A stretch of 64,000 nt of DNA from an uncultured Alphaproteobacteria bacterium (GCA_963699855.1 CAVOVL010000006.1:68606-132605), one strand, 5' to 3'; numbered from the stretch's first letter, positions 22,123 to 44,476 are shown. The notes: generated from the sequence alone by a model not told the origin. Numbers and translations: made by a program.

Positions 22123-22132
22123 GGGGAAACAC

Positions 22133-24961: not shown

Positions 24962-27321
24962 ATCTTCCGCCAGTCACCTGCCTGTTCGAAGGCGCCGGCG
25001 GCGCGATAGATGGTGCTTTCCTCGTAGCGCCTGCCCACGAGTTGCATGCCGACCGGAAGGCCTTGCGAAAAGCCGCACGGCACATTCATGGCCGGATGGC
25101 CCGACACGTCGAACGGCGCCGTGTTGGCCAGCATCTCGAATGCGCGCTGGCACCACAATGCCAGCGAGCTGTTGGCCGGCGGCAGCGGCGTCGCCTTCAT
25201 CGGCGTCGTGGGCATCAGCAGCAGGTCGTAGGAGGAAAGCATCTTGTTGTACTCGTCGCGCAACTGCCGCGACAGGTTCTGCGCCTTTGCATAGTAGTGA
25301 CCGCGAGTGTGCTTGAGGTGGTACATGCCCACCAGCATGCTGATCTTGAGCGTGTCGGAAAGCTCGTCCGCGCGCGAGCGCCAGTGCGAATGATAGTCGA
25401 GCAGCGAGGTGGTGTAGAGGCCTTCCCAGCCGGTGCCCATGCCGTTGCCGAGCATCATCTGGTTGGTCAGGCCCTCCAGCGCTATCGGGGTCCAGATCGC
25501 CACCCCCTTGAGGTGCCATGGCACCGAAACCTCGTCGACGGGAGCGCCGAGCCGGCGGAAGAGTTCGGCTGCCGCGCGCACTTTTGCATCCACATCGGCT
25601 TCGGCGCCGACCTGTCCGAAGCCTTCCTTGACGACGCCGATACGAAGGCCCGAAACGCCGCGATTGACGGCGCTCGTATAGCGGTCGGTCTTCACGTCGT
25701 ATTGGCGCGGGTCCAGCCCGTCGGCGCCGGCTATCACTTCCAGCATCAGCGCGTTGTCGATGACGTTCTGCGTCATCGGGCCGGTGTGGTCGATGGTGGC
25801 CTCGATCGGCATGATGCCGGTATAGGGAACGAGGCCGTGCGTCGGCTTCATGCCATAGACGCCGCAAAAGGAAGCCGGCATGCGGATCGATCCGCCCTGG
25901 TCTCCGCCAATGGCCATGTCGACGAGGCCCGCGCCGACCAGCGCGCCGGAACCGGACGACGATCCACCGGCGGAATAGCCGTGCTTGTGCGGATTGTGGA
26001 CCGGTCCCGTCGCGTTGGTGTGGCTTCCGCCGGACAGGCAGAAATACTCGCAATGCGCCTTGCCGGCGATGATCGCACCGGCGTCGAGCAGGCGCGTCAC
26101 GATCGTCGCGTCAATGTCGGGCGTGTAGCCCTTCAAGGTCGCGGCGCCGTTCATCATCGGCACGCCGGCGAGGCAGACATTGTCCTTGAGCGCCACCGTG
26201 CGCCCGTGCAGGGGACCGCGCGGCGCACCCCTGATCTCGGTCTTCACGTACCAGGCGTTCATCGGGTTTTCCTCCGCCGTCGGGCGGTAGCCCGATGTGC
26301 GCGGATAGAGCACCGGCGGCAGGTAATCGGGCAGCGCATCGACGACATCGTAGGCGTCGAGGGTGCCTTGCATCACGTCAAGGAATTCCTGGACGCGGGC
26401 GTCCGACATGTGCATTCCAAGTTCTGACACCACATCCTTCATCTGGGCCAAGGTCGGGCGCTGGACCGTCATGTAGGATATCCTTTCCTGGAGCGATGCC
26501 TGGACGGGCAGGGGGGCGGAGCCGGCCCCGGCGCCTGCCGTCGATCTTGACTGTGCCGCGGGCGCGGCGAGCTTGGGAACCGTTGCTTTCGACGCGGGCT
26601 TTGCGCCGCTGCCGCCAAGGCCGGTGAACTCCTCGATCAGCGCCGGATCGGATGCTTCCGACCCCGATATCTCGCCGATGATCGCGCCCTTCTGGATCAG
26701 CAGCACGCGATCCGACAGGGCCGTGATGAAGTCGAGGCTCTGTTCCACCAGCACGATGGAAACACCCATGCGGCGGTTGAGGCCTTTGAGAAGGTCGATG
26801 ATCTCGTCGATAATGGAAGGCTGGATGCCTTCCGTGGGCTCGTCGAGAAGAATGAGATCCGGCTGCGAAATCAGGCAACGCGCCAGCGCAAGCAATTGCT
26901 GCTCGCCGCCGGAAAGCGCGCCTCCGTCCCGGTCGAGAAGCCGCTCGAGCCGGGGAAAATCGCGCAGCACCTGCTCGATCGCCTCGTCCTCGTCCAATTC
27001 ATGTGCCGCAACACCCATGCGCAGGTTGTCGCGTACCGTGAGGTTCGGGAAAATTCCGCGTCCTTGCGGGACGTAGCCGATGCCGAACTGCGCGCGCTCC
27101 GATGAGCGCATGCGCGTCAAGTCATTGCCGTCATAGCGCATGTCGCCACCGGTAACGGGAATAATGCCCATCACGGTCTTGAGCAGCGTGCTCTTGCCCA
27201 TGCCGTTATGGCCAAGGACGCCGAGGATTTCGCCTGCGTCGACGGAAAAGTCGACGCCGTGCAATACGGGCACGCGGCCATAGCCGGAACGCAATCCCTT
27301 GACCTCAAGCAGTGTGCTCAT
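24958..27321 (-). CDS. single 787-aa ORF fusing a LivF/UrtE-like ABC transporter ATP-binding domain (N-terminus, about 235 aa) through a low-complexity linker to a complete amidase-signature amidase (about 500 aa)
   Basis: N-terminus [15 protein letters not shown]...[11 protein letters not shown]...[15 protein letters not shown]. Linker [41 protein letters not shown]. Then [15 protein letters not shown]... with [11 protein letters not shown], the amidase Ser-cisSer-Lys region. No stop in this frame. Confidence 0.7.
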
Positions 27322-28064
27322 GCGCGGTGCCCCAGATAGACTTCGCGGGCGCGCTTGTCCGACGAGATGGCGTCCATCGTGTCCTCCATGAGGATGCGGC
27401 CCTCATGGAAAAGCGTCACCGTGCGCGAGATCATGCGAATGAACTGCATGTCGTGTTCCACCACGATGAGCGCCGCCGAATTGTTGATTTCGGAAATCAG
27501 TTCAGCCGTACGGGCGGTCTCTTCGTGGGTCATTCCGGCCGCCGGCTCGTCCAGCAGCACCAGCCAGGGTTCGGCCGCGATCACCATGCCCAGTTCCACC
27601 CATTGCCGCTGTCCGTGCGCTAGGCGTCCAACGGTCGAGCGGCGGATGTCGCCCAGCCGGAGGCGGTCGATCGTGTCGGATGTGAGCGAGCGGGCCTTCG
27701 CCTGTCCGTGCCAACGCCGGGCCGAAAGCCAGATGTTCTCCTCTGTCGTCAGCCCGTCGAATACGTTCGGCACCTGTGTCTTGATGCCGACGCCCATGCT
27801 GGCGACTTCGTGCGGTTCGGCGCCGGTGGTGGTGGTGCCGCGAATGCGGATTTCGCCTTCGCTTGGCACCAGCTGGCCGGTGAGGCATTTGAAGAAGGTC
27901 GACTTGCCCGCGCCGTTGGGGCCGATGAGGCAGCGCAGTTCCTTGTCGAACAGGGTGAAATCGACCTGGTCAACGGCCCGCACCCCGCCGAAATGCATGG
28001 AGAGGCCGCGCGTCTCGACAACGGCATCGCGCGTGCGGATCTTGCCTTCCACCGCCATGTTCAT
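27318..28064 (-). CDS. LivG/UrtD-like branched-chain-type ABC transporter ATP-binding protein
   Basis: MNMAVEGKIRTRDAVVETRGLSMHFGGVRAVD..GPNGAGKST. Start ATG 28064 overlaps the LivM stop. The track ORF begins earlier, at 28136. Confidence 0.8.
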   Translation of the reverse strand: MNMAVEGKIRTRDAVVETRGLSMHFGGVRAVDQVDFTLFDKELRCLIGPNGAGKSTFFKCLTGQLVPSEGEIRIRGTTTTGAEPHEVASMGVGIKTQVPNVFDGLTTEENIWLSARRWHGQAKARSLTSDTIDRLRLGDIRRSTVGRLAHGQRQWVELGMVIAAEPWLVLLDEPAAGMTHEETARTAELISEINNSAALIVVEHDMQFIRMISRTVTLFHEGRILMEDTMDAISSDKRAREVYLGHRA

Positions 28065-29105
28065 TTCACACCTTCCGGCTTGCGCACGGCCCGGCGGCGG
28101 CGGACCGGTCCGCGCCTGCGCTTGGCGTTTGCCCAATCGATCACGGTGGGCGCTATTCCCTTGGGGACCAGGAGCACGAAAACAATGAGGATGATGCCAA
28201 GCACCAGATTGTTGTTGAGCTGGCTTTGCGCGCCCAGTGACGATGTCAGGTAGAACAGCGCGAAGGTGGCGATCACCGGTCCGATCAGCGTTCCGCGCCC
28301 GCCGACGATGACCCAGATGATCGTCAGCGCCGCGTTATAGAGGCTGAATACATCGGGCGTTATGCGTCCCACGCCATTGCAGAACAGCACGCCGCCGATC
28401 GCGGCAATGCCGGCGCCTATGGTGAAGATGCCGAGCTTGTAAGCGCGCGTATCATAGCCCAGCAGTTCGGCCCGAAGTTCGTTCTCGCGGATCGAAACGC
28501 AGACCCTGCCGAAATGCGTCGTCACGAGCCAGCCGGCGAATACAAAGCACAAGATGAGCGCGGCCATCGCGACATAGAAAACGTGTTCCGGCGACAGCAG
28601 CGCCTTCGTATCCCACGGCAGGTTTATGGGCGGCGAGGTTATGCCGTTAAAGCCACCCAGCAACGATTTGCCGATCTTGAATTCCGGACCGGACGTGCGG
28701 CGCATCAGCGAGAAGAGAATCAGCGTTACGGTGAGTGTGATGACGCCGAGATAGACGTCGGAAACGCGGCCGTAGAAAATGAAATAGCCAAGCAGGGCGG
28801 CAAAGGCGCAGGCAACAGCCACCGCCAGGAGGATCGCCCAGGAGGTGCCGCCAAAATTGATGGCAGCGATCGTATAGGCATAGCCGCCAATGCCGAAAAA
28901 CGCGACCTGGCCGAAGCACAAGATGCCGCCGAATCCCCAGATCAACGCGAGGCTCAGCGCAAGCACGGCAAGGCCGATCACGGTGGTGAGGTTTATGATC
29001 GTGAAGAGCTGCAGCACATGCGGCGCTGCCAGCATGAAGACGATGCCAATCAGCCGCGAAAATCAGCGTCGCGCGCATCTCGCGAAGGGTTCCGGAACCG
29101 TTCAT
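28061..29105 (-). pseudogene. LivM/UrtC-like ABC transporter permease, probable frameshift near 29045
   Basis: The main body is intact in ORF 28061-29035. A likely N-terminus MNGSGTLREMRATLIF sits in a different frame (ORF 28647-29105) and overlaps the LivH stop. Confidence 0.65.
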
Positions 29106-29971
29106 AGTGATTTCCGGAAGAAGCGACCGGTAATGCCGGTGGGCATCAGGCGCAGGAGAATGATTGCCGTCACGAGCAGCGCAACTTCGCCGATCGTCGG
29201 ACCGGTAAGGAACGTCACGATGCCGTTGATGCCGCCAAGGAGGATCGAGCCTGCCGCGGTGCCGGCAAGTATCGAGGCGCCGCCCGAGATGACCGTGATG
29301 AAGGCCTTGGCGATATAGGTTGCGCCCATGGTGGGCAGTACGCCGGTGACCGGCGCCAGGAGGCCGCCGGCAAGGCCGCTAACTGCCGCGCCGAGGCCGA
29401 ACGTGATCATGTAGATGCGGCTGGTCGAGACGCCGAGCGAGGAAGCCATCTGCGCGTTCTGCATGGTGCCGCGCGCCAGGAGCCCCAGTTTCGTCAGCTT
29501 GAGCGTTGCGTAGACCGCAAGCAGGAGCAGCGCGGTCACGAAGATCAGAAACAGGTCGTAGCCCGAAATCGTGTAGCCGCCGATCGGGAGTGCCCCGATC
29601 GGCGGCGAGATCGTGGTGGTGGTTTGCGCGCCGAAGATCGACGTCACGATACCGATGAGAAGGAGGGAGAGCCCCCAGGTGGCCAACAGCGTGTCGACCA
29701 TGCGGCCATACAGCCAGCGGATCAGCAGCCTTTCGACGATGACACCGATGATTCCCACGACCAGCGGCGCGAGAATCAGCATGGCGATCCAGATGTTGAC
29801 CCCGTTGTTGGTCGCGACGACGACCGTATAGCCGCCGAGCATCAGGAACTCGCCATGCGCGAGGTTGATCACCCGCATCATGCCGAAGATGATCGCGAGC
29901 CCGAGGCTTATCAGCGCCAGGTTCGCGATGCCGTAGATCAGCTGCAGACCGATCGCGATGACCTGGTCCAA
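29102..29971 (-). CDS. LivH/UrtB-like ABC transporter permease
   Basis: Intact 289 aa, hydrophobic, LivH-like (MDQVIAIGLQLIYGIANLALISLGLAIIFG...). Confidence 0.8.
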   Translation of the reverse strand: MDQVIAIGLQLIYGIANLALISLGLAIIFGMMRVINLAHGEFLMLGGYTVVVATNNGVNIWIAMLILAPLVVGIIGVIVERLLIRWLYGRMVDTLLATWGLSLLLIGIVTSIFGAQTTTTISPPIGALPIGGYTISGYDLFLIFVTALLLLAVYATLKLTKLGLLARGTMQNAQMASSLGVSTSRIYMITFGLGAAVSGLAGGLLAPVTGVLPTMGATYIAKAFITVISGGASILAGTAAGSILLGGINGIVTFLTGPTIGEVALLVTAIILLRLMPTGITGRFFRKSL

Positions 29972-30008
29972 TGGGCTCTCCCGTATTGTGTTCCGGCGAG
30001 TGCCGGCG

Positions 30009-31257
30009 TTACTTGATGCCTGCCGCCTCGAGTCCGTTCTCGAAGAAGAAGACGGACTGGTTCGGATTGGCGACGAGGTCGCAGACGAGCTGGGTGTCCG
30101 AGGGCGGCTGCGCTTCGTAGGTCTCGACGATCTGGAAAACTTGGTCTTTCAGCTCGCCCAGAACGACGTTCTGGATGCAGTGATTGGTCTTCGGATCCAC
30201 GGTTATCACGCCCGACGGTCCATCGTAGCTCAGCGGGGTCCGTAGCGCTTCGGCGACCGCATTGCGCTCGATCGAACCGGCCTTCTTCACCGCCTCTGCC
30301 CACAGCATCGCGCCTTCATAGGAACGTGTCGAAAGCTCGTTCATGACGGGGCGCTTGTCGCCCAGCTTGGCCGTCAGCTTTTCGAGGAATGCCTTGTTAG
30401 CCGGACGGTCGACTGCCTCGAAATAGGAGTAGGCAGCAAGCAGGCCGTTGCCTTCCTCGGCGGAGATCAATGTCTGCTCGTTGCCGACGCCGAAGGTTGT
30501 CGAGGCGATCGGGATGCTCTTGTTCATGCCGGCCGCGGCATACTGCTTGTAGAACGACACGTGTGCGCCGCCTACCAGAGCCGAGATCACCATGTCGGGC
30601 TTTGCAGCCTGGATTTTCTGTGATGGTCGGTCCGAAGTTGGTGACGTCGAGCGGGAAGAATTCAACCGCAACCGTTTCGCCGCCATTGTCCTTGACGAAA
30701 CGCTGCATCCACTGTGCCGTGATCTGGCCGTAATTGTAGTCGGCTGCGACGATGTAGACCTTCTTGCCCCATTTGTTCATCGCATAGGGAACAACCTTGG
30801 CGACGGTCTGGGCGGGCGTGGAGCCGGTATTGAAGTTGTTGTAGTCGCACACGCCGCCTTCATACTGCGTATTGTAGAAATAGAGCGTGTTGTAGCGGGC
30901 CAGCGTCGGGCGGATCGCCTCGCGGCTGGCCGATGTGATGCCGCCATGCACCGTCGCGGCCTTTTCGCCGGCTGCCGCCTCGGTGGCGAACTGGGTATAG
31001 AGCTGGATGTTCGACTGTGCGTCGTACATCTTCAGCTCGACTTCGCTGCCGAGCAGGCCGCCCGCGGCGTTGATATCCTCGATTGCAAGCTTGGTCGCCT
31101 CGGCCATGGGCGTGCCGTAGATGTCGAGGCCGCCGGAAAGGTCGAGAATCGATGCGAAGATGATCTTGTCCGCGGCATGCGAGCGGCGGATGAGTGCGGG
31201 CATTGCTAGCGTGAAGGCGGTGGTGCCGACGAGGAAATTTCGACGCGAGATGGACAT
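30009..31257 (-). pseudogene. Liv-family (UrtA/FmdD/AmiC-like amide/urea-type) periplasmic substrate-binding protein with Tat signal, one apparent frameshift near 30620
   Basis: N-terminus MSISRRNFLVGTTAFTLAMPALIRRSHAADK in ORF 30397-31257. The C-terminal half lies in ORF 30009-30686. Confidence 0.7.
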
Positions 31258-31315: not shown

Positions 31316-32946
31316 TCAGTCCTCTTTGGCGGGCTTCGACTTGCCCGTTTTCCTTGCGGGGCGAGCCCCGTTTCCGCGCCGGTCCAGCTGGGCCGTCAGC
31401 CCGCGAACGCCGTCGCCGATATTCATTCCGACTTCCTCGCCAAGCCGCTGGACGGCAGGCAATTGCAGCGCCATTGACAACACGCCGTCCACCAACTGGT
31501 TGACCGTGCTTCCCTCGCCGCCGCCCTCGCCATTGGAGGAATGGCCGTTGAGGCCATTGATCTGGTTGATGCGGATGCTTTCGATCTTTTCCGCCGGCTT
31601 CATGATGCGCTCGACAACTTCTGGCAGCGCACGCAGGCGCGCCTCGTCCAGCTTCATCGACATCAATTCCGGTGTCTGCGCGTTTTCCGCCGATATGACA
31701 CGCGGCGCGGCCTTCGGCTTCGGCCAGCAGCCTGTCGCGGGCGGCATGGGCCCGCTCCAGCGTCGCCTTCGCTTCCGCCTCGGCCATTGAAATGAGCGTG
31801 CCGACCTCGGAGCGCACACGCGTGTCGTCGACTTCGGCCTGCTCGGCGGCGCGCACAAGGGCAAGCGCCTTGTCGCGCTCCGCTGCCGCCATTTCACGCG
31901 TGGTGCGGACCTGTTCCTCGGCTTCGACTTCCTTGACCTTGGCCCCGATCGCGGCGGCTTCCGCCTTCGCTTCCTCGACCTTCTTCGCGGCAAGCGTCAC
32001 GACATTTTGCGAACGGGCAAGAGCCGTCGATAGCTCGGCTGCGAGGGTCTGCCGGCGAAGTTCGAGATCCTTCTCAATTTCGGTGAGGCGCGTCTGGCGT
32101 TCCCGTGCAATGCGCGCGGTTTCGCGCCGCTTTTCCGATTCGGCCTGTTCCTCGGCGGTGTCCGCAACACTGCGCGAGCGGGCAATCTCGATCTCGCGCT
32201 GCTGGGCGATCATCGCCTCTTCCTCTTCGCGCGCGATGGTCAGCTTGCGCTTGGTCGCATCTAGCTGGCTTTGGCGTACCGAAACCTCGGCGTCGGCCTC
32301 GATGGCTGCGCGCTCCTTCTTGTTGACAGTAATGATCTCCGCGAGGCGGCGCATGCCGAGGGCGTTGAACGCGTTGTTTTCGTCGAGCGCGCTGAAGGGC
32401 GTCTGGTCGATGCGGGTGAGCGACACCGATTCCAGCATCAGCCCGTTCTGCGCGAGGTTATCCTTGAGGACTGCCGAGACTTCTCCCGCGTAACCCGCAC
32501 GATTGTCCTGCAGTTCGTCCATCGTGTAGCGCGCCGCGACCGACAGCATGGCATCGACCAGCTTTCCTTCGAGCGTTTCGGCGAGTTCGGCGGCACGGAA
32601 AGTCTTTCCGGCAAGCGCCTGCGCGGCGGTAGCGACACCTTGTACGGTCGCATGGACGCGCACGTAGAACTCCGCGCCGACATCGACACGCAGGCGGTCC
32701 TTGGTGATGATCGACTTGCGCGCCGAGCCGCTCGATTTCGAGCTTCGTCGTGCGCATGTTGACTTCAGACACCTTGTGCAGGAATGGCAGCGCAATGCAG
32801 CCTCCGTCGAGCACGACCTTTTGCCCACCCGCACCTGTCCGCACCACGCTGATCTCGCGCGTCGCCTTGCGATAGTATCGGCTGAGAAAGAGGATGATGA
32901 GGATTGCCGCGACAAGCAGGACTACGAGACTGACAAACCACGTCAT
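31316..32946 (-). pseudogene. flotillin / SPFH (band 7) family protein (YqiK-like), at least 2 apparent frameshifts
   Basis: N-terminal TM + SPFH start MTWFVSLVVLLVAAILIILFLSRYYRKATREISVVRTGAGGQKVV in ORF 32458-32946. A long coiled-coil region lies in ORF 31206-32915. The C-terminus (ARVISAENAQTPELMSMKLDEARLRALPEV...) lies in ORF 31316-31993. Confidence 0.7.
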
Positions 32947-33162
32947 CGGCGCTGGCTTTCGAACAACAGAAATCGGTTAGCCGGCGAGTTCCCTCACCGG
33001 GCATTTGGTCGTGCCGGAGTTCTGAATTTCCCCTGGATGTGACGCTATAAGCGGCAGCGCCGGAGTCAAGGTGAAAAAAGAGACAAATGCAGAATTGTGA
33101 CGAAATCCGCATCGTCGGCGTTCATAAAGCAAGCAACGCAACTTATTGATTTAAAAGCAGGC

Positions 33163-33747
33163 CTAACGAAGCCCGTCCTTGCCTTCCGCAGCGTCGTGCG
33201 TCAGCCCGCCGACGCGGGCCAACGGACGGCCACTGTCAGTCACGGCGACGGCAACCATGATTTCCCCTGCGCGCGGGGCATCATTGAGGCGCACTTCAAT
33301 GCCGTCGAAATGGCTGCGCACATAGGCCGCGTCCTTGTGGCCAAGCGGAACGTCCAGCACCTGGCCAGGTCCGCCCATCTTCTTCGAGGATGGCACGAGC
33401 GCCGCGCCTTTTTCGACGGCCTTTCGCAGGGGTGCGCCGAGCTTTGGATGAAGGATCGCGGCTGCGTGTTCCAGTTCGCCGGCTTCCCCGACCATGGCGG
33501 CCTTGCCATAGCTTTGCGCCTGTGACGGCTCGATGCCCAGCGCCTCCACGCAGCGCTTGCCAAGCAGGCCGCCAAGTTCCTCGCCGATGTCGATCAGCGG
33601 CGTCAGGTCATCTTCGAAGCGCCCGGCAAACGGGTTGGCGATCACGGCGATTGCGACCGCCTTGCGCGTCGGATTTTCGAGAACTTGGCCTGCCTCGCGC
33701 CGCGTCTCCTCGACCCACACGGCCAGTTTGCGAATATCGGCGCTCAT
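33163..33747 (-). CDS. amino acid synthesis family protein (DUF1185 / PF06684), copy 2
   Basis: MSADIRKLAVWVEETRREAGQVLENPTRKAVAIAVIANPFAGRFEDD..., from the internal ATG 33747 of ORF 33163-34035. Paralogous to the upstream gene. Confidence 0.65.
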   Translation of the reverse strand: MSADIRKLAVWVEETRREAGQVLENPTRKAVAIAVIANPFAGRFEDDLTPLIDIGEELGGLLGKRCVEALGIEPSQAQSYGKAAMVGEAGELEHAAAILHPKLGAPLRKAVEKGAALVPSSKKMGGPGQVLDVPLGHKDAAYVRSHFDGIEVRLNDAPRAGEIMVAVAVTDSGRPLARVGGLTHDAAEGKDGLR

Positions 33748-34328
33748 CTCAATCCGTCCTCTCCGGCTATATCCTTCGCGGCAAGTCCTCCGGCGCGGTC
33801 GTGAATGCGTGGGCCTGTCGTCATGACCAGCACCAGCGCCATTTCGTCGGCGCGCGGCGAATCGTTCAGCCCGACTTCCATCGAGTCGAAATGGCTGCGC
33901 ACGTATGAAGCATTGATGTGCGTTACCGGTACGTCGAGCCGGGTGCCGACCGTTCCCACCTTCTTGGTGGAAGGAACGATCGCCTTTGCTCCACCCAGCA
34001 CTTCGCGCATCGCATAGCCTCCGGGCGCATGCCAAAGCGCTCCGTGTTCCAGTTCGCCCGCCGAACCGATGATCGCGCCCTTGCCATAGCCCTCCACGAC
34101 GGACGGATCGCCGCCCAGCAGCGCCACAAGCCGGCGCGCCATTTCGAGGCCGAGCGGCTTCAGGTCTTCCATGAAAGGCTGGATGTTTTCGACGTAACGG
34201 CCTGCGAATGGATTTCGGATCACCGCGATGATGGCGGCCCGGCGCAACGGCTTTTGCGCCCTCGGCCCGCCTTCGTGGTGGATTTCCTCCAGTGCGGTCG
34301 CGATCTTCCGGATCTCGACTTGCGACAT
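33744..34328 (-). CDS. amino acid synthesis family protein (DUF1185 / PF06684), copy 1
   Basis: MSQVEIRKIATALEEIHHEGGPRAQKPLRRAAIIAVIRNPFAGRYVENIQPF.... The stop overlaps the start of copy 2 (ATGA), suggesting translational coupling. Confidence 0.65.
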   Translation of the reverse strand: MSQVEIRKIATALEEIHHEGGPRAQKPLRRAAIIAVIRNPFAGRYVENIQPFMEDLKPLGLEMARRLVALLGGDPSVVEGYGKGAIIGSAGELEHGALWHAPGGYAMREVLGGAKAIVPSTKKVGTVGTRLDVPVTHINASYVRSHFDSMEVGLNDSPRADEMALVLVMTTGPRIHDRAGGLAAKDIAGEDGLR

Positions 34329-34341
34329 TGCTACTTCTCCC

Positions 34342-35193
34342 TCAACAAACACCGGCAAGGCAATGGGTGCGGCCTACGGCGGCAGCCCTGCCTTGCAGAA
34401 AAAGGGCCGCGGCGGCGATTTGGCCGCGCCCGACGAGTTCGCGCGACCTGACCGCGCCCGCGTTCAAGGCGGCGTCGCATTCGTCCGGCATCAGTGGTCC
34501 GACGCCGACCGTCACCAGGCGCCCGCCAAGATCGCTGTCCGGCTGAAGCCTGCTCGCAGGCTCGCGCGCGACAGCCGGGTGTCCCGGTATGTCCACGGCG
34601 TTGCCGATCACGGTCGCGGCAGCATCCGCCCTTGATGAAGTGCCCGCAAGCACCGTAACGGCATCGGCTATGCCAAGCGAGAAACTGCGTCCGACCCTGC
34701 CGCTTGTCGCGATGCCGCGGACAGGATCGGCCGCATTGATCTCGATGGCGCCCAGCGACACGTTGGCAAGGTCTGCAATCGCGATGCGGAACGACTGGCC
34801 GTCATCAAGATGCAAGGCGATGTCGCCGCCATTGTTGACGTAGGCGCGAACGAGCTTTGCCGAAGACACCATGGCTTCCAGGATTTCTTCGGCCACGGAC
34901 CCGGCAACTGCGGCCATGGGGGTAATGAAACCGGTGTCGCCATGCGGCAGCACCGCCTCGAACATGCGCTGAGCAATGCGCCCCCGCGGCCTCGCGCCAA
35001 CCGGGCTGCGCAGCAGCGGCAATTCCGCGACGAGTTCGTCCAGTACCGTGGCGAAACGCTGGCGCGCAGCTTCGAAAGCAATTGTGCGTTCGCCATCTGC
35101 GCCGATGATAAGGTCTATCGGTCCGTGCTGCAGATGCAACCGCTCGGCCCCTGGTGTGCGTCCTGGTAAAATCGCCGAGACAGCGCCGGTCAT
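34342..35193 (-). CDS. UPF0280 family protein (conserved partner of DUF1185 genes)
   Basis: Intact 283 aa ORF, MTGAVSAILPGRTPGAERLHLQHGPIDLIIGADGE.... The family assignment rests on recalled similarity and is moderately confident. Confidence 0.5.
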   Translation of the reverse strand: MTGAVSAILPGRTPGAERLHLQHGPIDLIIGADGERTIAFEAARQRFATVLDELVAELPLLRSPVGARPRGRIAQRMFEAVLPHGDTGFITPMAAVAGSVAEEILEAMVSSAKLVRAYVNNGGDIALHLDDGQSFRIAIADLANVSLGAIEINAADPVRGIATSGRVGRSFSLGIADAVTVLAGTSSRADAAATVIGNAVDIPGHPAVAREPASRLQPDSDLGGRLVTVGVGPLMPDECDAALNAGAVRSRELVGRGQIAAAALFLQGRAAAVGRTHCLAGVC

Positions 35194-36678
35194 CGCGGCC
35201 TGCTCCGCGATTTTCCCCAGCGGTAATTCTGCTTGTCCGTGGGGTCGGGCTCGCGCTCATGTGCGGCGACGGAACGGATGCCCGGCGCAAGCACGCTTTC
35301 GACAGGCTGGATGCGGTCGAGATAACCCCCGAGCGCCGCATAGTCCTCCCTGCGAAGCGTGAACTCGATGGGCGCGACCAAGGCTGGCGTCGGCACATAG
35401 CCGAAGGAATTGGAGGGCATCTTTGTCACGTCGACCATGACGGTTATGCCGCCGCCGGGCCAGACATAAGCTTGTGCGCCGCCACAAGAAACATAGGTCA
35501 GCGCGTCCTTCACCGAACGCGTCAAGCGGACGGGATTCGTCGTCACTCCGGCCCGCAATGATCCGCCAGCGCCGCCCATGAACAGCACCGAGCACATCGC
35601 GGGCTCGCAATTTTCAGCGATGATTTCCGCAGATGCTCGCAGGGCAGGCGGGGCTTGCGCCAGAACCGGGACGAGATTTGCGTCGAGTTCGTAGTAGGCC
35701 CATTGCTCGCCGGTCGTGGAAATCATCAGCATGCGCAGCCCCGGCCAGGCGATCTTCGGATTGAAGGGATCCGAGGATCGTCAGCGGATCGTCTATGCTG
35801 GTGCCGCCCCATCCGGTGCCCGGTTCGGCAACCTGAAAATAGCGTCCGGGCGTGGAGCGCCGGCCTTTCATTCTTATTCCTGTCGGCGGAATGTCGAGCA
35901 GCTTGCCCGCCTGGTGTTCGGAAAGGACGCCGGTGATGTGGTCATCGACGACAACCACCTCGTCGGCATTGCCCAGCCACTGCGTCGCGAACATGCCGAT
36001 GGTTGCCGAACCGCATCCCACGCGCATCAGTTTTTCGGGGACGCCATCGATGACGGGTGCCTTGCCGGCCTCGATCACGACGGTCGCGCCTTCGTCGATG
36101 GTCACTTCAACCGGCTCGCGGTTGCACAGCTTGAGCAACGCCTCGCAAGTGATGCGGCCTTCCTTCTTGGAGCCGCCGGTGAGGTGATCGACGCCGCCGA
36201 GCGACAGCATCTTCGATCCGTATTCGGCGGTCATGACATGACCGACCGGTTCGCCGTCCACCCTCACGATGGCGCGCTCATGGCCGATATGGCGGTCGGT
36301 GTCGATTTTCACCTTCACGCCGCAATAGCTGAAAATGCCCTCGGTAACGACAGTCACCATGTCGACGCCGTCGACTTCCTGGCTGACGATGAAGGGTGCG
36401 GGCTTGTAGTCGGGGTAGGTGGTGCCCGCGCCGACAGCTGTCACGAAGGGACGGTCGCCCTTGATCATATCCCCGTCCCAGTCCTGGCCGCCATTCCCGG
36501 CTTCAAGGAACGGAACCGCTTCCTCGCGGGCGGCGATGACGGTCAGCGGATCGAGCCGGACCAGTTCGCCGCCATGGTTGGCGTATCGGTCACAGGCGCC
36601 GGAGCGGCCTTCGGCGATATAGCAAAGCACCGGGCAGGCGTCGCAGCGGATCTTGTCCGCCGCAAGAACCTCATTCAT
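35190..36678 (-). pseudogene. Cys-rich N-terminal (putative Fe-S) protein of the family sometimes annotated 6-hydroxynicotinate reductase-like, one apparent frameshift near 35740
   Basis: N-terminus MNEVLAADKIRCDACPVLCYIAEGRSGACDRYAN in ORF 35614-36678. The C-terminal about 180 aa lie in ORF 35190-35732. Confidence 0.45.
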
Positions 36679-39366
36679 GGCCGGCCTCCTTCAACGCGGC
36701 GCGTACGAGCGCTGGCGTTGCCGGTACGCGGTGGAGGAGAACGCCAGTTGCATTGCGGATCGCATTGACGATCGCGGGAGCGGTGGGAATGAGCGCGTGC
36801 TCGCCCAGCCCCTTGGCGCCGTAAGGGCCGTGCGCATCGGTCTCTTCGATGATGATCGTCTCTATCGGCGGCACGTCGCCGATCGTGGGGATCAGATAGT
36901 CGTGCAGGTTTTCGGTCCGGCCCGGAATGAACTCCTCCATTAGGGCCATGCCTAGGCCCTGTGCGACGCCGCCATGCACTTGGCCCTCGACCAGCAGCGG
37001 GTTGATCGCCTTGCCGACATCATGCGCAGCGACAATCCGGATCGGGCGCACATTCCCAAGCTTCATGTCGACCTCGACAACCGCCAGGTGCGCCGCATAG
37101 CCGAACTGCGCATAAGGTTCGCCCTGGCCGTTTGCGTCGAGCGGTTTCGTGGGCGGATCGTAGCTTTCCACGGCGACGAGCACATAGCCTTCGTCATCGG
37201 CTTCCATGCGCGCCGGATCGAGCAGGTGGACACCGCTCGCATCGGCGATGCGAAGCGATCCCGACTGCGAAGCGTGATCACGGCATCTTCCGCGGCATTG
37301 CATTGGCGCAGGATCTGCCGGCGCAGCGCTTCGCCAGACAGGCGCGCTGCATTGCCGGTGACGAAGGTCTGGCGAGAGGCGGAGGTCTTGCCCGCATCGG
37401 GCGTGTTGTCGGTATCGGAAGACGCAAGTGTGATGGCGTCGAACGGAACGCCGAGCGCCTGCGCGAAGATTTGCGCAATGACCGTGTTGGAGCCCTGGCC
37501 GATATCGACTGCGCCCTGGTGCAGGACGATCGTGCCGTCACGCGCCGATCGCGGACTTGATCGTCGAGGGATTTGGCATGGAAGTATTGCCGCAGCCATA
37601 CCAACCTGCCGCCACGCCCACGCCACGCTTCACGGCAGCATTCTCCGCATTGAAACTCGCGCAATCCGCGAGCGCGGATGCGTAGGCCGGGCGAAGCGCC
37701 TCCAGACACGCCCTGATGCCGACGCCCTGCGCGAATACCTGCCCGCACACCGTGGGTACGCCGTTTTCCAGCGCGTTGAGAATGCGCAATTCCAGCGGAT
37801 CGACTTGAAGCGTCAAGGCAAGCGTGTCGATCGCCGTTTCCTGCGCAAGCGCCGATTGCGGCACGCCGAAACCGCGAAATGCGCCCGAGGGGGCGCAGTG
37901 CGTATAAACCCCGCGGGAGCGGGCCGTGTAGTTTTCGATGCGGTAGGGCCCCGAAGCGTGGATCGGCACGCGGGTCGCGACCGTCGGCCCCCAGGAGGAA
38001 TAGGCGCCGGTGTTGAAGTCACCCTCGAACGTCATTGCACAAAGCTTGCCTTCGCGCGTCGCGCCAAGCCGGATGCGGATGGAGGAGGGGTGCCGCTTGG
38101 TCGTCGCCTGCATGGTTTCGGTACGCGTGTAGGCCATGCGCACGGGCTTGCCGGTCTTCAGCGGCGGCCAGCGCCAGATAGGGTTGCACAGAGACATCGA
38201 GTTTGGAGCCGAAGCCGCCGCCAACGGCCGTGGGGACGATGCGAATGTCCTTGCGGTCCATGGCGAGGATGTCGGCAACGGTCTCAAGGTCCATCACCGG
38301 CGCTTGCGTGCAGGCGTGGATTTCCAGCCTGCCGTCGCGCATCTGCGCAAAGCCCGCCTCCGGCTCGATATAGCCGTGCTCCACGAAACCGGTTTCGAAT
38401 GCATTCTCGACAACGATCTCCGCGCCGGCCAGGGCGGCATCCGCATCACCGCATTTAACGAAACCCCGGCACATGACGTTTCCGGGACGGTTTGCATGGA
38501 GCTGCGGCGCGCCTTCCGCCAGCGATGCCGGCGGCTCCAGCACCGAGGGAAGCTCGGTCCAGCGCACGGGGAAAGCCTGCGGATCGAAACGCGCCATCGT
38601 CTCGGCCTGCCCGACAACCGCTGCAACCGCATCGCCGCGGTAAAGCGTTTCCCTTTCGGCAAAAACAGGCTGGTCGATGAAGCCGGGGATGACGCCAAAC
38701 AGATTGCGCCCCGGCACGTCGCGGACGGTCAGTACCGCCTCTATGCCCGGATTTTCCGCCATGAATGCGTCGATATCGCCTAGCTCGAACAGCGCATGGG
38801 CAAATGGCGAGCGCACCACCTTGACCACCAACGTATCCGGCGGCGCGATGTCATCGCCATAGCGCTCGGTGCCTTCGACACGGGTGCGACCGTCGATCCG
38901 CCGGATCGATGTTCCAAGGCTGCCGTCGCCGTCCAGCCTCGCGCCATCGGAACCTGCGGCGAGCACTGCGTCGATGATCTTGCGATATCCGGTGCAGCGG
39001 CACAGCACGCCGCCAAGGGCGTCGCATACCTCTTCTTCGCCCGGATGCGGGTTCGTACGAAGCAGGGCCGTTGCGGAAACGATCATGCCCGGCGTGCAGA
39101 TGCCGCACTGCGCCGCCTGGTGATCCTCGAAACTGGCCATCAAGGCCGAACCCGCCGGGTCGGAAACGAGGCCGCGGACGGTCTCGACGCTGCGGCCCTG
39201 CGGCTTGATGCGCCGGCATCAGGCAGGCGCAAACGGGTTCGCCGTCGACAAGCACCGTGCATGCGCCGCAATCGCCCGCATTGCAGCCGATCTTCACTTC
39301 GCGCGCGCCGAGCCTTTCGCGCAGGAAGTGAGAAAGCCGTTCGCCGGCGTCAGCCGTTGCGGCCAC
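36671..39366 (-). pseudogene. molybdopterin-dependent hydroxylase (xanthine dehydrogenase/CoxSL family) with N-terminal [2Fe-2S] domain fused to the MoCo-binding large subunit, at least 5 apparent frameshifts
   Basis: [2Fe-2S] motifs CNAGDCGACTV and QCGICTPGM...LCRCTGY. MoCo-domain pieces lie in ORFs 38019-39143, 37538-38287, 37063-37626 and 36671-37303. Confidence 0.75.
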
Positions 39367-39414
39367 GCGCTTCGCCGTTCAGCATGATGGCGATCCGGTT
39401 TGAAAGCTGAACGT

Positions 39415-40255
39415 TCATGCGGGCATTGCCTTTGCCATTGCGGCTGCAAGCGCACGCGAAATCATTTCCGCAGCGGCCTCCCTGCGATACGTGCTGCTGC
39501 CGCGCACGTCGGATATCGGGGATAGGGGCGCCAAGTGCCCGGCCGCGATTTGCGGCAGGTCGTCCGTCCGGCGGCCGACTAAGTCTGCTTCCAGCGCCGG
39601 AAGCCGTTGCGCAACCGGCGAACATGCGCCGACCGCGATGCGGGTTTCGCCGATGCGGCCGTCGCGGACATTTAGGGCAACCGCGACCATGGCAATGGAA
39701 ATGACGAGATAGCGGCGAGCGCCCGCCTTGATGAAGCTGGAATGAAGGTCTTGCGCTAGTTCCGGCAAAAGTACCGCCGAGACAAGTTCTCCCGGCCGCA
39801 GGTCCGTACGCCGCACGCCAGCAATAAACCGGTCGAGCGGCAGCACCCGTACTGCGCCGCGTGACACGAGTTCAATGGAAGCGTTGAGTGTCAGCAGCGG
39901 CGGTACGCCGTCGGCTGCGGGGGAGGCATTGCAGATATTGCCGCCAATGGTTCCCGCATTCTGGATTTGAACTGAACCGACTTCGCGTGCAGCGGCCTTC
40001 AGACCGTCGAATGCAGGCGGCAGCTTTGCGCGAACGATGTCGCTCCAGCGGGTCGCGGCGCCGATGCGCCAGCCTGACGCTGTCTTTTCGATTCCCCTGA
40101 AACCCGGCAGGCGCGCCGACATCGAGAAGCGAGCGTGCGCCAATCCGTTCGCCCTGTGCGGGAAACCAGTCGGTGCCGCCGGCTACGGGCGCGGCGTCCA
40201 GCTTCTCGAGGGCGTCGAATGCCTCGTCCAGGGCCTTTGCAGACAGATATGCCAT
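39415..40255 (-). pseudogene. molybdenum hydroxylase FAD-binding subunit (CoxM/XdhB-like), one apparent frameshift near 40140
   Basis: N-terminus MAYLSAKALDEAFDALEKLDAAPVAGGTDWFPA in ORF 39872-40285. The remainder (QNAGTIGGNICNASPAADG...) lies in ORF 39415-40143. Confidence 0.7.
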
Positions 40256-40448
40256 TACCAGACCCGCATCTACGTTAAGCGACAAATAGAGAATGAGGCG
40301 TACAGGGCTGTCAAATGGATTCCGGCTTTTTCTTCAATGGTTGAAGCCGCAGGAATGTACAATTCAAGACGGCGCGCCGCCGCTTGCGGCCCGGTCAAAT
40401 TGCTGGTTCACTCCCGCCGTGGGGCGAAAAGGCAGGCGGGAGTGAACG

Positions 40449-41696
40449 ATGGCGCATGAACCGGCAGACCCAAGCGGTGGCGGCCCGACCAGGTTGGTGA
40501 TCCGCAACATCGGAATGCTGTTGTCGGGTCGTCTGGAGGAGCCGATCCTCGACGCGGATTGCCTTGTCGCCGACAATGGCAAGATCACCGCATGGGGCAA
40601 GGAAAGGGATCTCGAAACTGACGGCGCCACGACGCTGATCGACGCGAACGGCACGACGCTGTGCCCCGGCCTTATCGACAGCCATGTGCACCCCGTGGTG
40701 GGCGACTACACGCCACGCCAGCAGCAATTGAACTGGATCGACTCCACCCTGCATGGCGGCGTTACGACGATGATTTCCGCCGGCGAGGTGCACATGCCGG
40801 GGCGTCCGCGCGACGTGGTCGGCCTCAAGGCGATGTCGATCGCGACGCAGCGCTTCTACCAGAATTTTCGCCCGTCCGGGGTCAAGGTTCATGCCGGAGC
40901 GCCGGTTATCGAGCACGGCATGGTCGAGGACGACTTCAAGGAACTGGCCGCTGCCGGCGTGAAGCTGCTTGGCGAAGTGGGCCTTGGCAGCGTCAAGGAC
41001 GGCAAGACCGCAAAGCAGATGGTGGGTTGGGCCCGCAAATATGGAATTCAAAGCACGATCCACACCGGAGGTCCTTCAATTCCCGGCTCCGGGCTGATCG
41101 ACGCCGACATGGTGCTGGAAACGGGGACGGACGTCATCGGACACGTCAATGGCGGGCATTCGGCATTGCCTGACGACCAGATCATCTGCTTGTGCGAGCG
41201 CTGCGGAGCCGGGCTTGAGATCGTCCACAACGGCAATGAACGCGCCGCGCTGCTGACGCTCAACACGGCGCGCGAGTTGAAGCAGCTTGACCGGATCATC
41301 CTTGGTACCGACGGCCCGGCCGGCTCGGGCGTCCAGCCGCTCGGCATCCTGCGGATGATCGCGATGCTATCGAGCCTTGGAAATGTCCCGGCGGAAATCG
41401 CGTTCTGCTTTGGCACCGGCAACACGACGCGCCAGCGCAAGCTTGACACGGGCATCATCGAAAAAGGCATGTGCGCCGATTTCGTATTCCTGGACCAGGC
41501 GCAACATTCGCCGGGAAAGACCATGCTGGAATCGGTAGGGCAGGGCAACTTGCCGGGCGTCGGCATGACCGTCATCGACGGCGTCGTGCGCAGCGAGCGC
41601 AGCCGCAACACGCCACCCGCCGGACGCATTCCCGATCGTGGTGCCGGTAAGGCACTGATAAACATCACCCTGCCAGGATGTCGCTGCTCAGTATGA
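40449..41696 (+). CDS. metal-dependent amidohydrolase (enamidase-like / cyclic amidohydrolase family)
   Basis: Intact 415 aa with the HxH motif GLIDSHVHP. Amidohydrolase-fold family. The enamidase-like assignment is an inference from gene context. Confidence 0.6.
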   Translation: MAHEPADPSGGGPTRLVIRNIGMLLSGRLEEPILDADCLVADNGKITAWGKERDLETDGATTLIDANGTTLCPGLIDSHVHPVVGDYTPRQQQLNWIDSTLHGGVTTMISAGEVHMPGRPRDVVGLKAMSIATQRFYQNFRPSGVKVHAGAPVIEHGMVEDDFKELAAAGVKLLGEVGLGSVKDGKTAKQMVGWARKYGIQSTIHTGGPSIPGSGLIDADMVLETGTDVIGHVNGGHSALPDDQIICLCERCGAGLEIVHNGNERAALLTLNTARELKQLDRIILGTDGPAGSGVQPLGILRMIAMLSSLGNVPAEIAFCFGTGNTTRQRKLDTGIIEKGMCADFVFLDQAQHSPGKTMLESVGQGNLPGVGMTVIDGVVRSERSRNTPPAGRIPDRGAGKALINITLPGCRCSV

Positions 41697-42299
41697 GTTC
41701 GATGCCGGCCGCCCGCATCATTTCCAGTGCCGCCGGTCCGGTTGTCTGCGGATCGACGGCCGCCGATGCATCGGTGATGACGAGCGTTTTGAAGCCGAGG
41801 GCATGCGCGTCCATCGCAAGGCCGCTGACGCAATAATCGGTCGCGATGCCCGGTCACGAAAATCCGCTCGATGTTTCTTTCGCGCGCATAGCCTGCCAGC
41901 CCGGTCATGGTCTGGCCGTCGACCATTCGGAACGCCGAATAGCTGTCGACATGCGGCAGATATCCCTTGCGGATGACCAGTTGCGCGTGGGGAATGTCGA
42001 GGTCGGGGTGAAATTCGGCGCCTGGCGTTCCCTGTACAACATGATCGGGCCACAGCACTTGCGTGCCATAGGGCATTTCGACGGTGTCGAAAGGCTGCTT
42101 TCTGTCATGCGACGATGCAAAGGAAACATGCCCGCGCGGATGCCAGTCCTGCGTCAGCACGACATTTTCGAAACGCCGCGGCCACCTGGTTGATGACCGG
42201 CACGATCTCATGCCCGCTGGCAGTCGCGAGCGCCCCGCCAATGCAGAAATCGTTCTGTACATCGACCACGACAAGAAGGTCGTTCGGGCCAGGCGTCAT
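41660..42299 (-). pseudogene. pncA: nicotinamidase/pyrazinamidase (PncA, isochorismatase family), at least 2 apparent frameshifts
   Basis: N-terminus MTPGPNDLLVVVDVQNDFCIGGALATASGHEIVPVINQ in ORF 42105-42305. Middle FENVVLTQDWHPRGHVSFASSH... lies in the frame of ORF 41048-42274. After IERIFVTG there is a one-base insertion (accgGgcatc). The C-terminus IATDYCVSGLAMDAHALGFKTLVITDASAAVDP...ELILSSDILAG lies in a third frame. Confidence 0.7.
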
Positions 42300-42836
42300 G
42301 TTCAAGTAGTTTCTCGGATTACGTTTCTAGCCCCAAAACTCACACGAAAAGAACTTTCCGTAAAGCATCTACAAATGCGATTCCCAAGACAGCCTCAGTC
42401 CATCGGCAAACCATTTTGTTGGCGGAGAATGCGCAGGCGCTCTAGGAGGTTGCCGACAGCTGAAGTCTTCCGATGTCAATAGCAGTGCTGGCTGGCATCG
42501 CAATCGCGTCGCACTCGCGTGTGACGCACGAAGGTGGCGCTGGCAGTTTAGTACTTCAACGAGCCTGAATTAGTAACTTCAGGCATAGAATTAAAAAACT
42601 AGCTTAACATGCTGCAAAAAAAATAAAATCATTTGAAATACGTGAAAGTCTCGAAGGGAAATGCGGCGGCCGGGGCTCGAAGGGGCAACCGTCCCCCGTA
42701 CCCAGGCAAATCGATTTCTGGCATCAGATCTCAAGAATCCAACTCAAGAAAGAGCAAACAAAATCGCATTTCGTAGATATACCGTAGATCACGAAAAAGG
42801 GGTTAGCGCCAAAAATCGCTAACCCCTTGTTAAATT

Positions 42837-42911
42837 TGGCTCCCCGGGCCGGATTCGAACCAGCGACCAACCGGTTAACAGCCGGTTGCTCTACCGCTGA
42901 GCTACCGAGGA
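42837..42911 (-). tRNA. tRNA-Asn (anticodon GTT), with encoded CCA
   Basis: The reverse complement TCCTCGGTAGCTCAGCGGTAGAGCAACCGGCTGTTAACCGGTTGGTCGCTGGTTCGAATCCGGCCCGGGGAGCCA folds as a cloverleaf (acceptor stem UCCUCGG/CCGGGGA, anticodon loop CUGUUAA). Confidence 0.9.
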
Positions 42912-43240: not shown

Positions 43241-44476
43241 TCAGAAATCCGAGGGCGGGGTGGCCGTCCGCCGCGCCAGCTTCAGGAAAGGCCGCTCGAC
43301 GATGCGGGCGCGTACCATCATCTTGTGATAGCGCAGCTCGCGAAGGGCGTAGATTTCAGCCCAAAGCTCTCCATTTGCCGTATCGGCGTATTTGCGTTCG
43401 ATACTGGCGATAGCGATGTTGCGCTTGGTTGTGGGCGACCAGGTCGCCGCAGTGATGATTCCCGCCTCGCGGGTCTTGCGGTGGTACAGCAGTGCCATGC
43501 TGGCCGGTTCGTTGCCCTCAAGCTCCATGCCCACGAGTGCAAAACGCATCGCGCCCTTTGCCCTTGCGGCGGTGATGGCACGCTTGCCGTTGAAATGCGA
43601 CTTGGCCATGTCGACCATCCATTCGAGGCCGGTTTCGTCCGGAAAGCGCGTCCTGTCCGTCCGCAACGCCTTCTCGCTCGTGACGAAATCGGCGTTTGCA
43701 ACGATGAAGCCCGCTTCGATTCGCGCGCGGTTCAGTGCCGAATAGCCGATGGCGGCGATGCCGCGCAGCCGACCGGCTTCCCACAGGCGATCCCAAAGCG
43801 AAAGCGCCTTGGCTCGGTCGGCGAATAATTCGTAGCCAAGGTCGCCGGTGAAGCCGGTTCGCGAGATTAGCACCTCGCCGTTTTCATGCGGGAATGCTGC
43901 GATGTCGAACGGCTTCATCGAGGAAATCGCAAAGCCGGCATCGCGCAGGATTGCCGCCGAGGTCGGTCCCTGCAGCGCAAGGCCGGCGATGTCGTCGGTC
44001 TCTTCCGCAATTGCCACATCGAAGCCGTCCGCGCTGTCGAGCAGCCACGGCAAATGCCGCTCCTGGCAACAAAGCCGGAACCGGTTCTCCGCCAGCCGGA
44101 ACAGCGTGCCGTCATCCAGCAACTGGCCCTCGTCGTCGCACCAGGCGGTGTAATGCACCCGCCGCAGGCCGAGCTTGCGCACGTCTCGCAACGTCAGGCG
44201 GTTGAGGAAATCCACCGCGCCGTGGCCCTCGATCCGGTATTTGACCATGGGCGAGATGTCGAACAGCGCCGCGGTCGAGCGGATGGCGAAATACTCCAGT
44301 TCCTCGTCGCGGATCTTCGAAGGTGCGGCGTAGCCGGCCCAGTCATACCAGTCGGCTCCGGTCATCAATGCCGCAAGGCGCGAATGGAAGGGCGACTGGC
44401 GTTGTGGCGTCCGGAAATGGTCCTGCTGTGCAAGACGGGCAAGGCTATCGGCGGCGATTGCTGCGTTGGTGTTCAT
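43241..44476 (-). CDS. aminomethyltransferase family protein (GcvT-like; glycine-cleavage T / N-methyl demethylase-like)
   Basis: Intact 411 aa with the GcvT fold: ...FDISPMVKYRIEGHGAVDFLNRLTLRDV..., GYSALNRARIEAGFI. Confidence 0.7.
   Translation of the reverse strand: MNTNAAIAADSLARLAQQDHFRTPQRQSPFHSRLAALMTGADWYDWAGYAAPSKIRDEELEYFAIRSTAALFDISPMVKYRIEGHGAVDFLNRLTLRDVRKLGLRRVHYTAWCDDEGQLLDDGTLFRLAENRFRLCCQERHLPWLLDSADGFDVAIAEETDDIAGLALQGPTSAAILRDAGFAISSMKPFDIAAFPHENGEVLISRTGFTGDLGYELFADRAKALSLWDRLWEAGRLRGIAAIGYSALNRARIEAGFIVANADFVTSEKALRTDRTRFPDETGLEWMVDMAKSHFNGKRAITAARAKGAMRFALVGMELEGNEPASMALLYHRKTREAGIITAATWSPTTKRNIAIASIERKYADTANGELWAEIYALRELRYHKMMVRARIVERPFLKLARRTATPPSDF

Follow-up and report, generated by a model that had tools for sequence, protein, structure and literature searches.

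A candidate gene cluster for nicotinate and nicotinamide breakdown, with probable single-base frame errors, in an uncultured alphaproteobacterium

Can an organism degrade nicotinate with a gene cluster whose enzymes are recognisable one by one while the reading frames are broken? The question is raised by a stretch of 64,000 nucleotides from an uncultured Alphaproteobacteria bacterium (GCA_963699855.1 CAVOVL010000006.1:68606-132605), referred to below in its full length as the window. A sequence-only reading had proposed here a nicotinamidase (PncA), a molybdenum hydroxylase of the xanthine dehydrogenase (XDH) family, a Cys-rich protein resembling 6-hydroxynicotinate reductase (Hnr), one UPF0280 and two DUF1185 proteins and an enamidase-like amidohydrolase. 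Gene content, order and coordinates had been read correctly, all genes being found within 33163-42305 (Table 1), but it had been overlooked that the sequence as written encodes no intact set of proteins. We consider it likely that the cluster serves the breakdown of nicotinate and nicotinamide by hydroxylation, reduction and ring opening, that the frame-breaking insertions are errors and that the pathway is working. This reading is based on the homology of each enzyme, the operon structure and the conserved arrangement.

Six genes on the minus strand (33163-40255) form a continuous series in which each start overlaps or abuts the stop of the preceding gene. Stop/start overlaps connect the hydroxylase subunits (XDH_M/XDH_L), the large subunit with Hnr (8 nt), Hnr with UPF0280 (ATGA) and the two DUF1185 paralogs (DUF1185_b/DUF1185_a, ATGA). 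Each family assignment was confirmed by Pfam and NCBIfam with the exception of Hnr.

In the sequence as written, no intact frame was found for PncA, the enamidase, both hydroxylase subunits and Hnr. In tblastn searches with the proteins of a Sulfitobacter plasmid, Hnr, the Mo subunit, the subunit binding flavin adenine dinucleotide (FAD) and PncA were each split over several frames, at least four for XDH_L and at least two each for XDH_M, Hnr and PncA. The reference for the frame check was a Logan contig (L003) with an intact Hnr of 495 amino acids (aa) and 96 % identity (P0001). Its blastn alignment to window positions 25186-42350 had 92.55 % identity and 23 gaps, every one of 1 nt. Seventeen of these gaps represent an extra base in the window, at 29050, 30621, 31700, 32719, 34331, 35769, 37269, 37273, 37545, 38162, 39194, 39369, 40113, 40267, 41627, 41849 and 42180. 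Fifteen are located inside coding sequence, the other two (34331, at DUF1185_b, and 40267) just 5' of start codons. Six affect XDH_L (37269, 37273, 37545, 38162, 39194 and 39369), while with the base at 41627 the final 9 residues of the enamidase are exchanged and its open reading frame (ORF) is lengthened, the true end being near 41658. The flotillin gene next to the cluster has two extra bases, and the genes for the binding protein and one permease of the neighbouring ATP-binding cassette (ABC) transporter are also frame-broken. Deletion of the extra bases turned all 12 tested genes into full-length ORFs without stops and with 91-100 % aa identity to L003; for XDH_L the reconstruction was 94.5 % identical.

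The corrected enamidase, 98.8 % identical to its L003 ortholog, aligned end to end with the enamidase of Eubacterium barkeri (PDB 2VUN; 359.6 bits, E 2e-106, residues 15-393 against 3-381 of the 386 residues of the chain). This match is far ahead of the second-best PDB match, which reached only E 5.6e-06; thus the amidohydrolase stands apart from purine and hydantoin amidohydrolases and does not group with them. The nicotinamidase is a canonical one: the reconstructed protein matched the enzyme of Acinetobacter baumannii (PDB 2WT9) with E 1.7e-74, and the L003 ortholog (95 % identical) passes the NCBIfam model NF008623 with 179.5 bits at a cut-off of 174.

Hnr contains 11 Cys residues, of which C12, C15, C19 and C29 are invariant across the family. 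No Pfam domain or model covers it, and the PDB contains no structure related to it. The E. barkeri enzyme reportedly binds a flavin covalently and holds one [2Fe-2S] cluster besides two [4Fe-4S] clusters (Alhapel and co-workers, 2006). The N-terminal 2x[4Fe-4S] domain of anaerobe-type enzymes is absent in the window protein, and 24 alignment columns, the four Cys included, are invariant between Hnr and ferredoxin-type members. Identities are 66-81 % to proteins in the 80 surveyed genomes (see below), 72-73 % to homologues of Bradyrhizobium and Afipia, and about 77 % to many proteins named 6-hydroxynicotinate reductase by NCBI, a name borne by hundreds of homologues. The proposed similarity to 6-hydroxynicotinate reductases is borne out by these names and by the published 42 % identity between the reductase of Bradyrhizobiaceae SG-6C, a member of the clade, and the purified E. 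barkeri enzyme (PMC3511419). Some Hnr homologues (P0127 and P0130, locus L086) are fused to an N-terminal ferredoxin and a GltD-like NAD(P)H-flavin module (Fer4_20 and Pyr_redox_2), so that in those lineages the reductant may be NAD(P)H. For the Hnr of the window, without ferredoxin domain and translationally coupled to the hydroxylase, it seems possible from the gene arrangement that electrons are taken directly from the hydroxylase, because hydroxylation yields two electrons and the reduction uses two; the conversion of nicotinate to tetrahydro-6-oxonicotinate would then be redox-neutral.

For the molybdenum hydroxylase, the Pfam domains of the XDH family (Fer2_2, Ald_Xan_dh_C, MoCoBD_1/2, FAD_binding_5 and CO_deh_flav_C) confirmed the proposed composition of a FAD subunit and a second subunit with fused 2Fe-2S and molybdenum cofactor (MoCo) domains. 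In the uncorrected sequence the domains of XDH_L are spread over fragments, and FAD_binding_5 and CO_deh_flav_C of the FAD subunit are split over two frames. The best single PDB chain for the Mo subunit, fused in the same way, was the aldehyde oxidoreductase of Desulfovibrio gigas (408 bits). Three chains of the E. barkeri nicotinate dehydrogenase, each with partial coverage, gave 268.5, 207.9 and 125.2 bits, together about 602 bits and the best summed score, an affinity judged by PDB bit scores. Among the NCBIfam equivalogs, neither xanthine dehydrogenase and aldehyde oxidoreductase nor 4-hydroxybenzoyl-CoA reductase and CO dehydrogenase had their cut-off reached by the intact ortholog, nor had any other; the best equivalog, a selenium-dependent xanthine dehydrogenase model, scored 573.8 bits at a cut-off of 830. 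The ortholog therefore does not count among the recognised enzymes for xanthine, aldehydes, 4-hydroxybenzoyl-CoA or CO.

The homologies of enamidase, Hnr, Mo hydroxylase and PncA support the logic of the route of E. barkeri and Azorhizobium caulinodans that had been proposed for the cluster. The substrate would probably be imported by the neighbouring Liv-type ABC transporter. PncA, an optional addition in few relatives, would deamidate nicotinamide to nicotinate, and the hydroxylase with its FAD, 2Fe-2S and MoCo centres would form 6-hydroxynicotinate. Hnr, putatively an Fe-S protein whose N-terminal part holds four invariant Cys, would reduce 6-hydroxynicotinate to 1,4,5,6-tetrahydro-6-oxonicotinate, and the enamidase would open the ring to 2-formylglutarate and ammonia. 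What we infer in this scheme is the substrate specificity, which donor supplies Hnr with electrons and what the two accessory families do.

The arrangement around Hnr was surveyed in species genomes, which contained at least 595 Hnr hits; the best 80 loci were analysed and belonged to Rhodobacterales, Hyphomicrobiales, Granulosicoccus and Acidobacteriota. Seventy-four of them had enough downstream DNA for a count of the accessory genes. In 64 of the 74 loci UPF0280 starts no further than 400 nt downstream of Hnr, and in 66 Hnr is followed by DUF1185, with two copies in 54 loci and one in 11. The linkage of Hnr, UPF0280 and DUF1185 is far beyond chance, and the tight coupling claimed for the two families in the window is real. 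Of 76 loci, 55 have the gene for the Mo subunit directly upstream of Hnr; in the 21 others UPF0280 was kept in 19 and DUF1185 in 20, hence both families follow the reductase and not the hydroxylase. In the 80 loci, the genes located within 10 kb of Hnr included an enamidase (48 loci), a MarR regulator (43 loci), a ferredoxin-NADP reductase (19 loci) and permeases and ATPases related to those of the window (39-41 loci). PncA occurred within this distance in just three loci, so the link to a nicotinamidase is a minority feature.

The UPF0280/DUF1185 module recurs where Hnr is of the ferredoxin type and about 44 % identical: L084 has UPF0280, L091 both families and L092 DUF1185 only (Table 1). 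In L091 the single DUF1185 protein is 63 % identical to DUF1185_a, more than the 49 % of the enamidase and 33 % of UPF0280 in this locus and the roughly 44 % of ferredoxin-type Hnr. Another distant locus (L089) has a RidA gene beside two enamidase genes and Hnr, and RidA, of a related fold class, may substitute there for DUF1185. On the Pleomorphomonas plasmid pSM30-1 (L002, 3873-11340) the positions of UPF0280 and DUF1185 are occupied by two hypothetical genes (306 and 194 aa), assigned by position alone. A NicR-like regulator is present and hydantoinase A/B-type genes replace the enamidase, which looks like a variant ring-opening step. What is new is that UPF0280 and DUF1185 track Hnr with or without a Mo hydroxylase, also in distant anaerobe-type clusters. 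Two widespread families without an annotated function are thereby tied to Hnr across Alphaproteobacteria, Granulosicoccus, Acidobacteriota and anaerobe-type clusters, so their function becomes testable in tractable hosts. As a tentative and rather doubtful suggestion, both could be obligate partners of Hnr and not genes of nicotinate clusters in general, UPF0280 installing or maintaining its cofactor (a covalent flavin or a sulfur-based one) and DUF1185 processing an unstable intermediate.

UPF0280 of the window is above the cut-off of NCBIfam NF003322 (354.5 bits, cut-off 290) and below the gathering cut-off of the Pfam family ApbE (PF02424; 21.5 bits, cut-off 25.6). An AlphaFold2 model (pLDDT 95.2) was compared with the PDB by Foldseek: the best match was DVU1097 (PDB 2O34), followed by 31 ApbE, Ftp and FmnB chains with E-values of 1e-05 to 1.4e-03, a probability of 1.00 and TM scores of 0.33-0.52. 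The protein is thus predicted to have an ApbE-like fold, and the JGI label of the family is 'ApbE superfamily'. In hhalign with Ftp of Escherichia coli only residues 94-194 aligned, to Ftp residues 184-303, with GIATSG and RADAAAT placed on GISTSG and EADAWDT of Ftp. None of the residues T163, S164, G165, D190 and T194 varies among 41 sequences; in ApbE the metal/diphosphate site is formed by the motifs TSG and D..T. The same alignment revealed no counterpart to the HVIDPQTGRP segment and the N-terminal, flavin-binding region of Ftp. We take the HxIDPxTG segment to carry the catalytic His of ApbE (H257 in Vibrio cholerae). According to Price et al. (2018) the homology of COG2122 proteins to ApbE stops short of the flavin-binding region, a persulfide role has been proposed, and the proteins are required, together with DUF39 and NIL/ferredoxin proteins, for homocysteine synthesis (PMC5764234). 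Membership among the canonical ApbE flavin transferases was rejected in view of the sub-threshold Pfam score, the missing His segment and this report, though flavin transfer is retained as one way in which the protein might function. A Moco sulfuration factor for the hydroxylase is disfavoured by the 19 of 21 loci in which UPF0280 follows Hnr without a hydroxylase directly upstream. Most likely UPF0280, derived from ApbE, would assist Hnr as a maturation or accessory factor, and the cofactor role suggested above parallels the genetic requirement beside DUF39 and NIL/ferredoxin.

The two DUF1185 proteins are about 45 % identical to each other and match the Pfam family AA_synth with E 6.7e-72 (DUF1185_a) and 6.8e-73 (DUF1185_b), 241 and 244 bits at a cut-off of 27. 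DUF1185_a is 97 % identical to its L003 counterpart and matched PDB entry 2QTP (SPO0826; E 1e-102); a further PDB match was 3BYQ (E 2.7e-34). For the family two crystal structures are available, a hexamer with a fold like Bacillus chorismate mutase. Its 'amino acid' label goes back to Liv-type transporter genes in the neighbourhood; in the window such genes are part of the nicotinate cluster. TgnF, the DUF1185 protein in the trigonelline pathway of Acinetobacter baylyi, reportedly stimulates aldehyde oxidation after ring opening, while no effect was found for HcdD of the 7-hydroxycoumarin pathway in Pseudomonas mandelii (PMC7913881). In what is the weakest part of the interpretation, DUF1185 would most likely act on an intermediate that is unstable and arises when the ring is reduced or opened, for example an enamine/imine or a beta-formyl acid, because of the analogy with TgnF and the RidA gene in one distant cluster.

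Whether the pathway is working depends on the nature of the extra bases. A real, recently inactivated pseudogene cluster, in which biological frameshifts ended nicotinate catabolism, would account for frame-breaking insertions in five cluster genes and in the flotillin, binding-protein and permease genes. Two features of the insertions weigh in its favour and against errors: the distribution is uneven, with none in 25186-29050 and 17 over the next 13 kb up to 42180, and the extra bases are not confined to homopolymers, most being outside such runs. However, all events are +1 insertions; in-gene deletions, longer indels or stops after correction were not found. At a dS of about 0.31 to L003 the corrected genes have a dN/dS of 0.05 overall and of 0.018-0.117 per pathway gene, and selection is not relaxed downstream of any frameshift. 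Genes remote from the cluster are frame-split as well, as judged by Pfam domains across adjacent frames: a short-chain dehydrogenase/reductase (SDR) near 22400 (22106-22892), an amidase (19571-20975), a FAD amine oxidase near 47400 (46023-47743) and a PfkB kinase near 13650 (13200-15200). Single-base frame errors are window-wide and not specific to the nicotinate cluster, and a technical error mode is much more likely than 17 insertions of a single kind that were independent and all very recent. One event type, no nonsense codons, no relaxed selection and the window-wide spread make sequencing or assembly errors the most likely source of the insertions, therefore the organism probably has a working pathway and its loss is unlikely. 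Two further explanations were rejected. Removal of the adjacent extra bases puts the stop at 37538-37540 in the Mo subunit out of frame, which excludes selenocysteine or readthrough, and programmed frameshifting does not fit the same event type in unrelated genes for the transporter, flotillin, SDR and amidase. With about one spurious extra base per kb in places, readings of 'pseudogenes' or 'novel short ORFs' from the window are unsafe.

A functional cluster might still be directed at a different N-heterocyclic carboxylate, such as a chlorinated nicotinate or some other acid of the pyridine or pyridone type. The substrate specificity of XDH-family enzymes is unreadable from sequence, and the hydroxylase meets no curated equivalog cut-off. 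Relatives swap parts, as seen in the hydantoinase A/B of Pleomorphomonas and the 21 of 76 loci without hydroxylase directly upstream of Hnr, and strain SG-6C channels 6-chloronicotinate into the same cluster (PMC3511419). On the other side, the pathway-specific enzymes enamidase and Hnr are both close family members, a nicotinamidase adjoins them in the window and in L003, SG-6C grows on nicotinate (PMC3511419) and the route is reported for nicotinate catabolism in A. caulinodans (PMC3511419, PMC9304392). We regard another substrate as quite improbable. Further points weigh against nicotinate breakdown as outlined here. The connection of Hnr to the E. barkeri enzyme is made by NCBI names and the published identity of a clade member, not by a direct alignment, and UPF0280 lacks the catalytic His segment, its homology missing the part of ApbE that binds flavin (PMC5764234). 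Genes for an aldehyde dehydrogenase, a MarR/NicR-type regulator, a ferredoxin-NADP reductase, glutarate-CoA metabolism and RidA were absent from the window; thus neither what becomes of 2-formylglutarate nor the reductant for Hnr is accounted for within it. Breakdown of nicotinate and nicotinamide nevertheless remains the reading we consider likely.

The Liv-type transporter genes are located beyond 33163-42299, in the same order as in L003, and the flotillin gene between transporter and DUF1185 genes is conserved in L003. The transporter operon ends with a fusion of an ABC ATPase and an amidase-signature domain, also present in L003, which is followed by an acyl-CoA ligase gene. On the other side, a tRNA-Asn gene is situated about 530 bp past the start of PncA; an Rfam scan of the window detected tRNA only. 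The similarity to L003 stops at 42350, the end of the L003 contig itself. The GC content falls to 0.58 in 42-44 kb, beside the tRNA gene, which could mark an island boundary. The adjacent genes for a GcvT-like aminomethyltransferase and two FAD amine-oxidase-type proteins may be a separate amine-demethylation module.

Table 1. Genes and other features of the window and of loci used for comparison. Coordinates are window positions unless a locus is named; -, minus strand; +, plus strand
Feature	Coordinates	Strand	Remarks
AMP-binding acyl-CoA ligase	23216-24973		follows the ATPase/amidase fusion
ABC ATPase/amidase-signature fusion	24958-27402	-	814 aa
Liv-type ABC transporter	27321..31257	-	ATPase 27321-28064, permeases 28064-29971, binding protein 30012-31257
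Flotillin/Band_7 gene	31319-32946	-	
DUF1185_a	33163..33747	-	PF06684 'amino acid synthesis', 194 aa, intact
DUF1185_b	33744..34328	-	paralog of DUF1185_a, 194 aa, intact; start set by homology to L003
UPF0280 / COG2122	34342..35193	-	divergent ApbE superfamily member, 283 aa, intact
Hnr (6-hydroxynicotinate reductase family)	35190..36678	-	495 aa after removal of the extra base 35769
XDH_L, Mo hydroxylase large subunit	36671..39418	-	fused 2x[2Fe-2S] and MoCo; putative nicotinate hydroxylase; 913 aa after 6 removals
XDH_M, FAD subunit of XDH-family hydroxylase	39415..40255	-	about 279 aa; extra base at 40113
Enamidase ortholog	40449..41696	+	divergent from the minus-strand genes; Amidohydro_1/3; true length 402 aa
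PncA nicotinamidase	41665..42305	-	212 aa after removal of 41849 and 42180; convergent with the enamidase gene
tRNA-Asn (GTT)	42837-42911	-	
GcvT-like aminomethyltransferase and two FAD amine-oxidase-type genes	43241-47743	-	beside the tRNA
Locus L084/85			XDH, enamidase, Hnr, UPF0280
Locus L091			anaerobe-type; TRAP transporter, aldehyde dehydrogenase, XDH S/M/L, enamidase, Hnr, UPF0280, DUF1185
Locus L092			as L091, without UPF0280
Locus L089	7217-11560 (in L089)		RidA (PF01042), enamidase, enamidase, Hnr; neither UPF0280 nor DUF1185 nearby

Alhapel and co-workers reportedly stated in 2006 that nine Proteobacteria have genes for the pathway's first three enzymes. The cluster of E. barkeri (NdhFSLM, Hnr, Ena, Hgd and a B12-dependent branch) matches the window in the first three reactions and its enamidase is orthologous. 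The hydroxylase, however, consists of two polypeptides in the window (FAD; fused FeS and MoCo) and of four in E. barkeri, and genes of the downstream fermentation were not evident among the scanned ORFs of the window, in which no dedicated search, e.g., for Hgd, was made. UPF0280 has relatives of the same family in MA1715 of Methanosarcina acetivorans and DvMF_0044/DVU1097 of Desulfovibrio, which likewise stand beside an Fe-S/ferredoxin-type reductive enzyme. The partner differs, being Hnr in the window and DUF39 with NIL/ferredoxin in homocysteine synthesis in the others (PMC5764234). TgnF and HcdD share the Pfam family with the DUF1185 proteins of the window, a likeness at the level of the family, and are encoded in operons for the degradation of a pyridine-3-carboxylate or a cyclic unsaturated lactone; unlike the window, their pathways involve no Hnr.

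The closest parallels are proteobacterial. The cluster type was described by Shettigar in 2012 for A. caulinodans, Bradyrhizobium japonicum, Rhodopseudomonas palustris and Bradyrhizobiaceae SG-6C and includes a 'putative nicotinate ABC transporter' (PMC3511419); the chemistry of the pathway is summarised in PMC9304392. Published loci are AZC_2790-2804 in A. caulinodans ORS571, blr3818-3830 in B. japonicum and those of R. palustris HaA2 and SG-6C. Compared with this type, the window adds the rare PncA, carries two DUF1185 paralogs, has the flotillin gene between transporter and pathway genes and has no MarR regulator nearby. A plasmid of Sulfitobacter pontiacus (K3755_RS15150-RS15190, NZ_CP081117.1) has the gene order of the window, with two DUF1185 genes, UPF0280, Hnr, fused Mo subunit, FAD subunit and a divergent amidohydrolase; the matched segments, 46 % of the query, are 73 % identical on the DNA level, and the NCBI annotation already uses these names. 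An ABC transporter is encoded in this locus, too. In contrast to the window, the locus comprises genes for a ferredoxin-NADP reductase and a MarR regulator as well as adjacent glutaryl-CoA-type beta-oxidation/acyl-CoA genes, and PncA is lacking. The cluster type has thus already been published (2006 and 2012) and named by the NCBI pipeline, and the window is one more carrier, equipped with a nicotinamidase.

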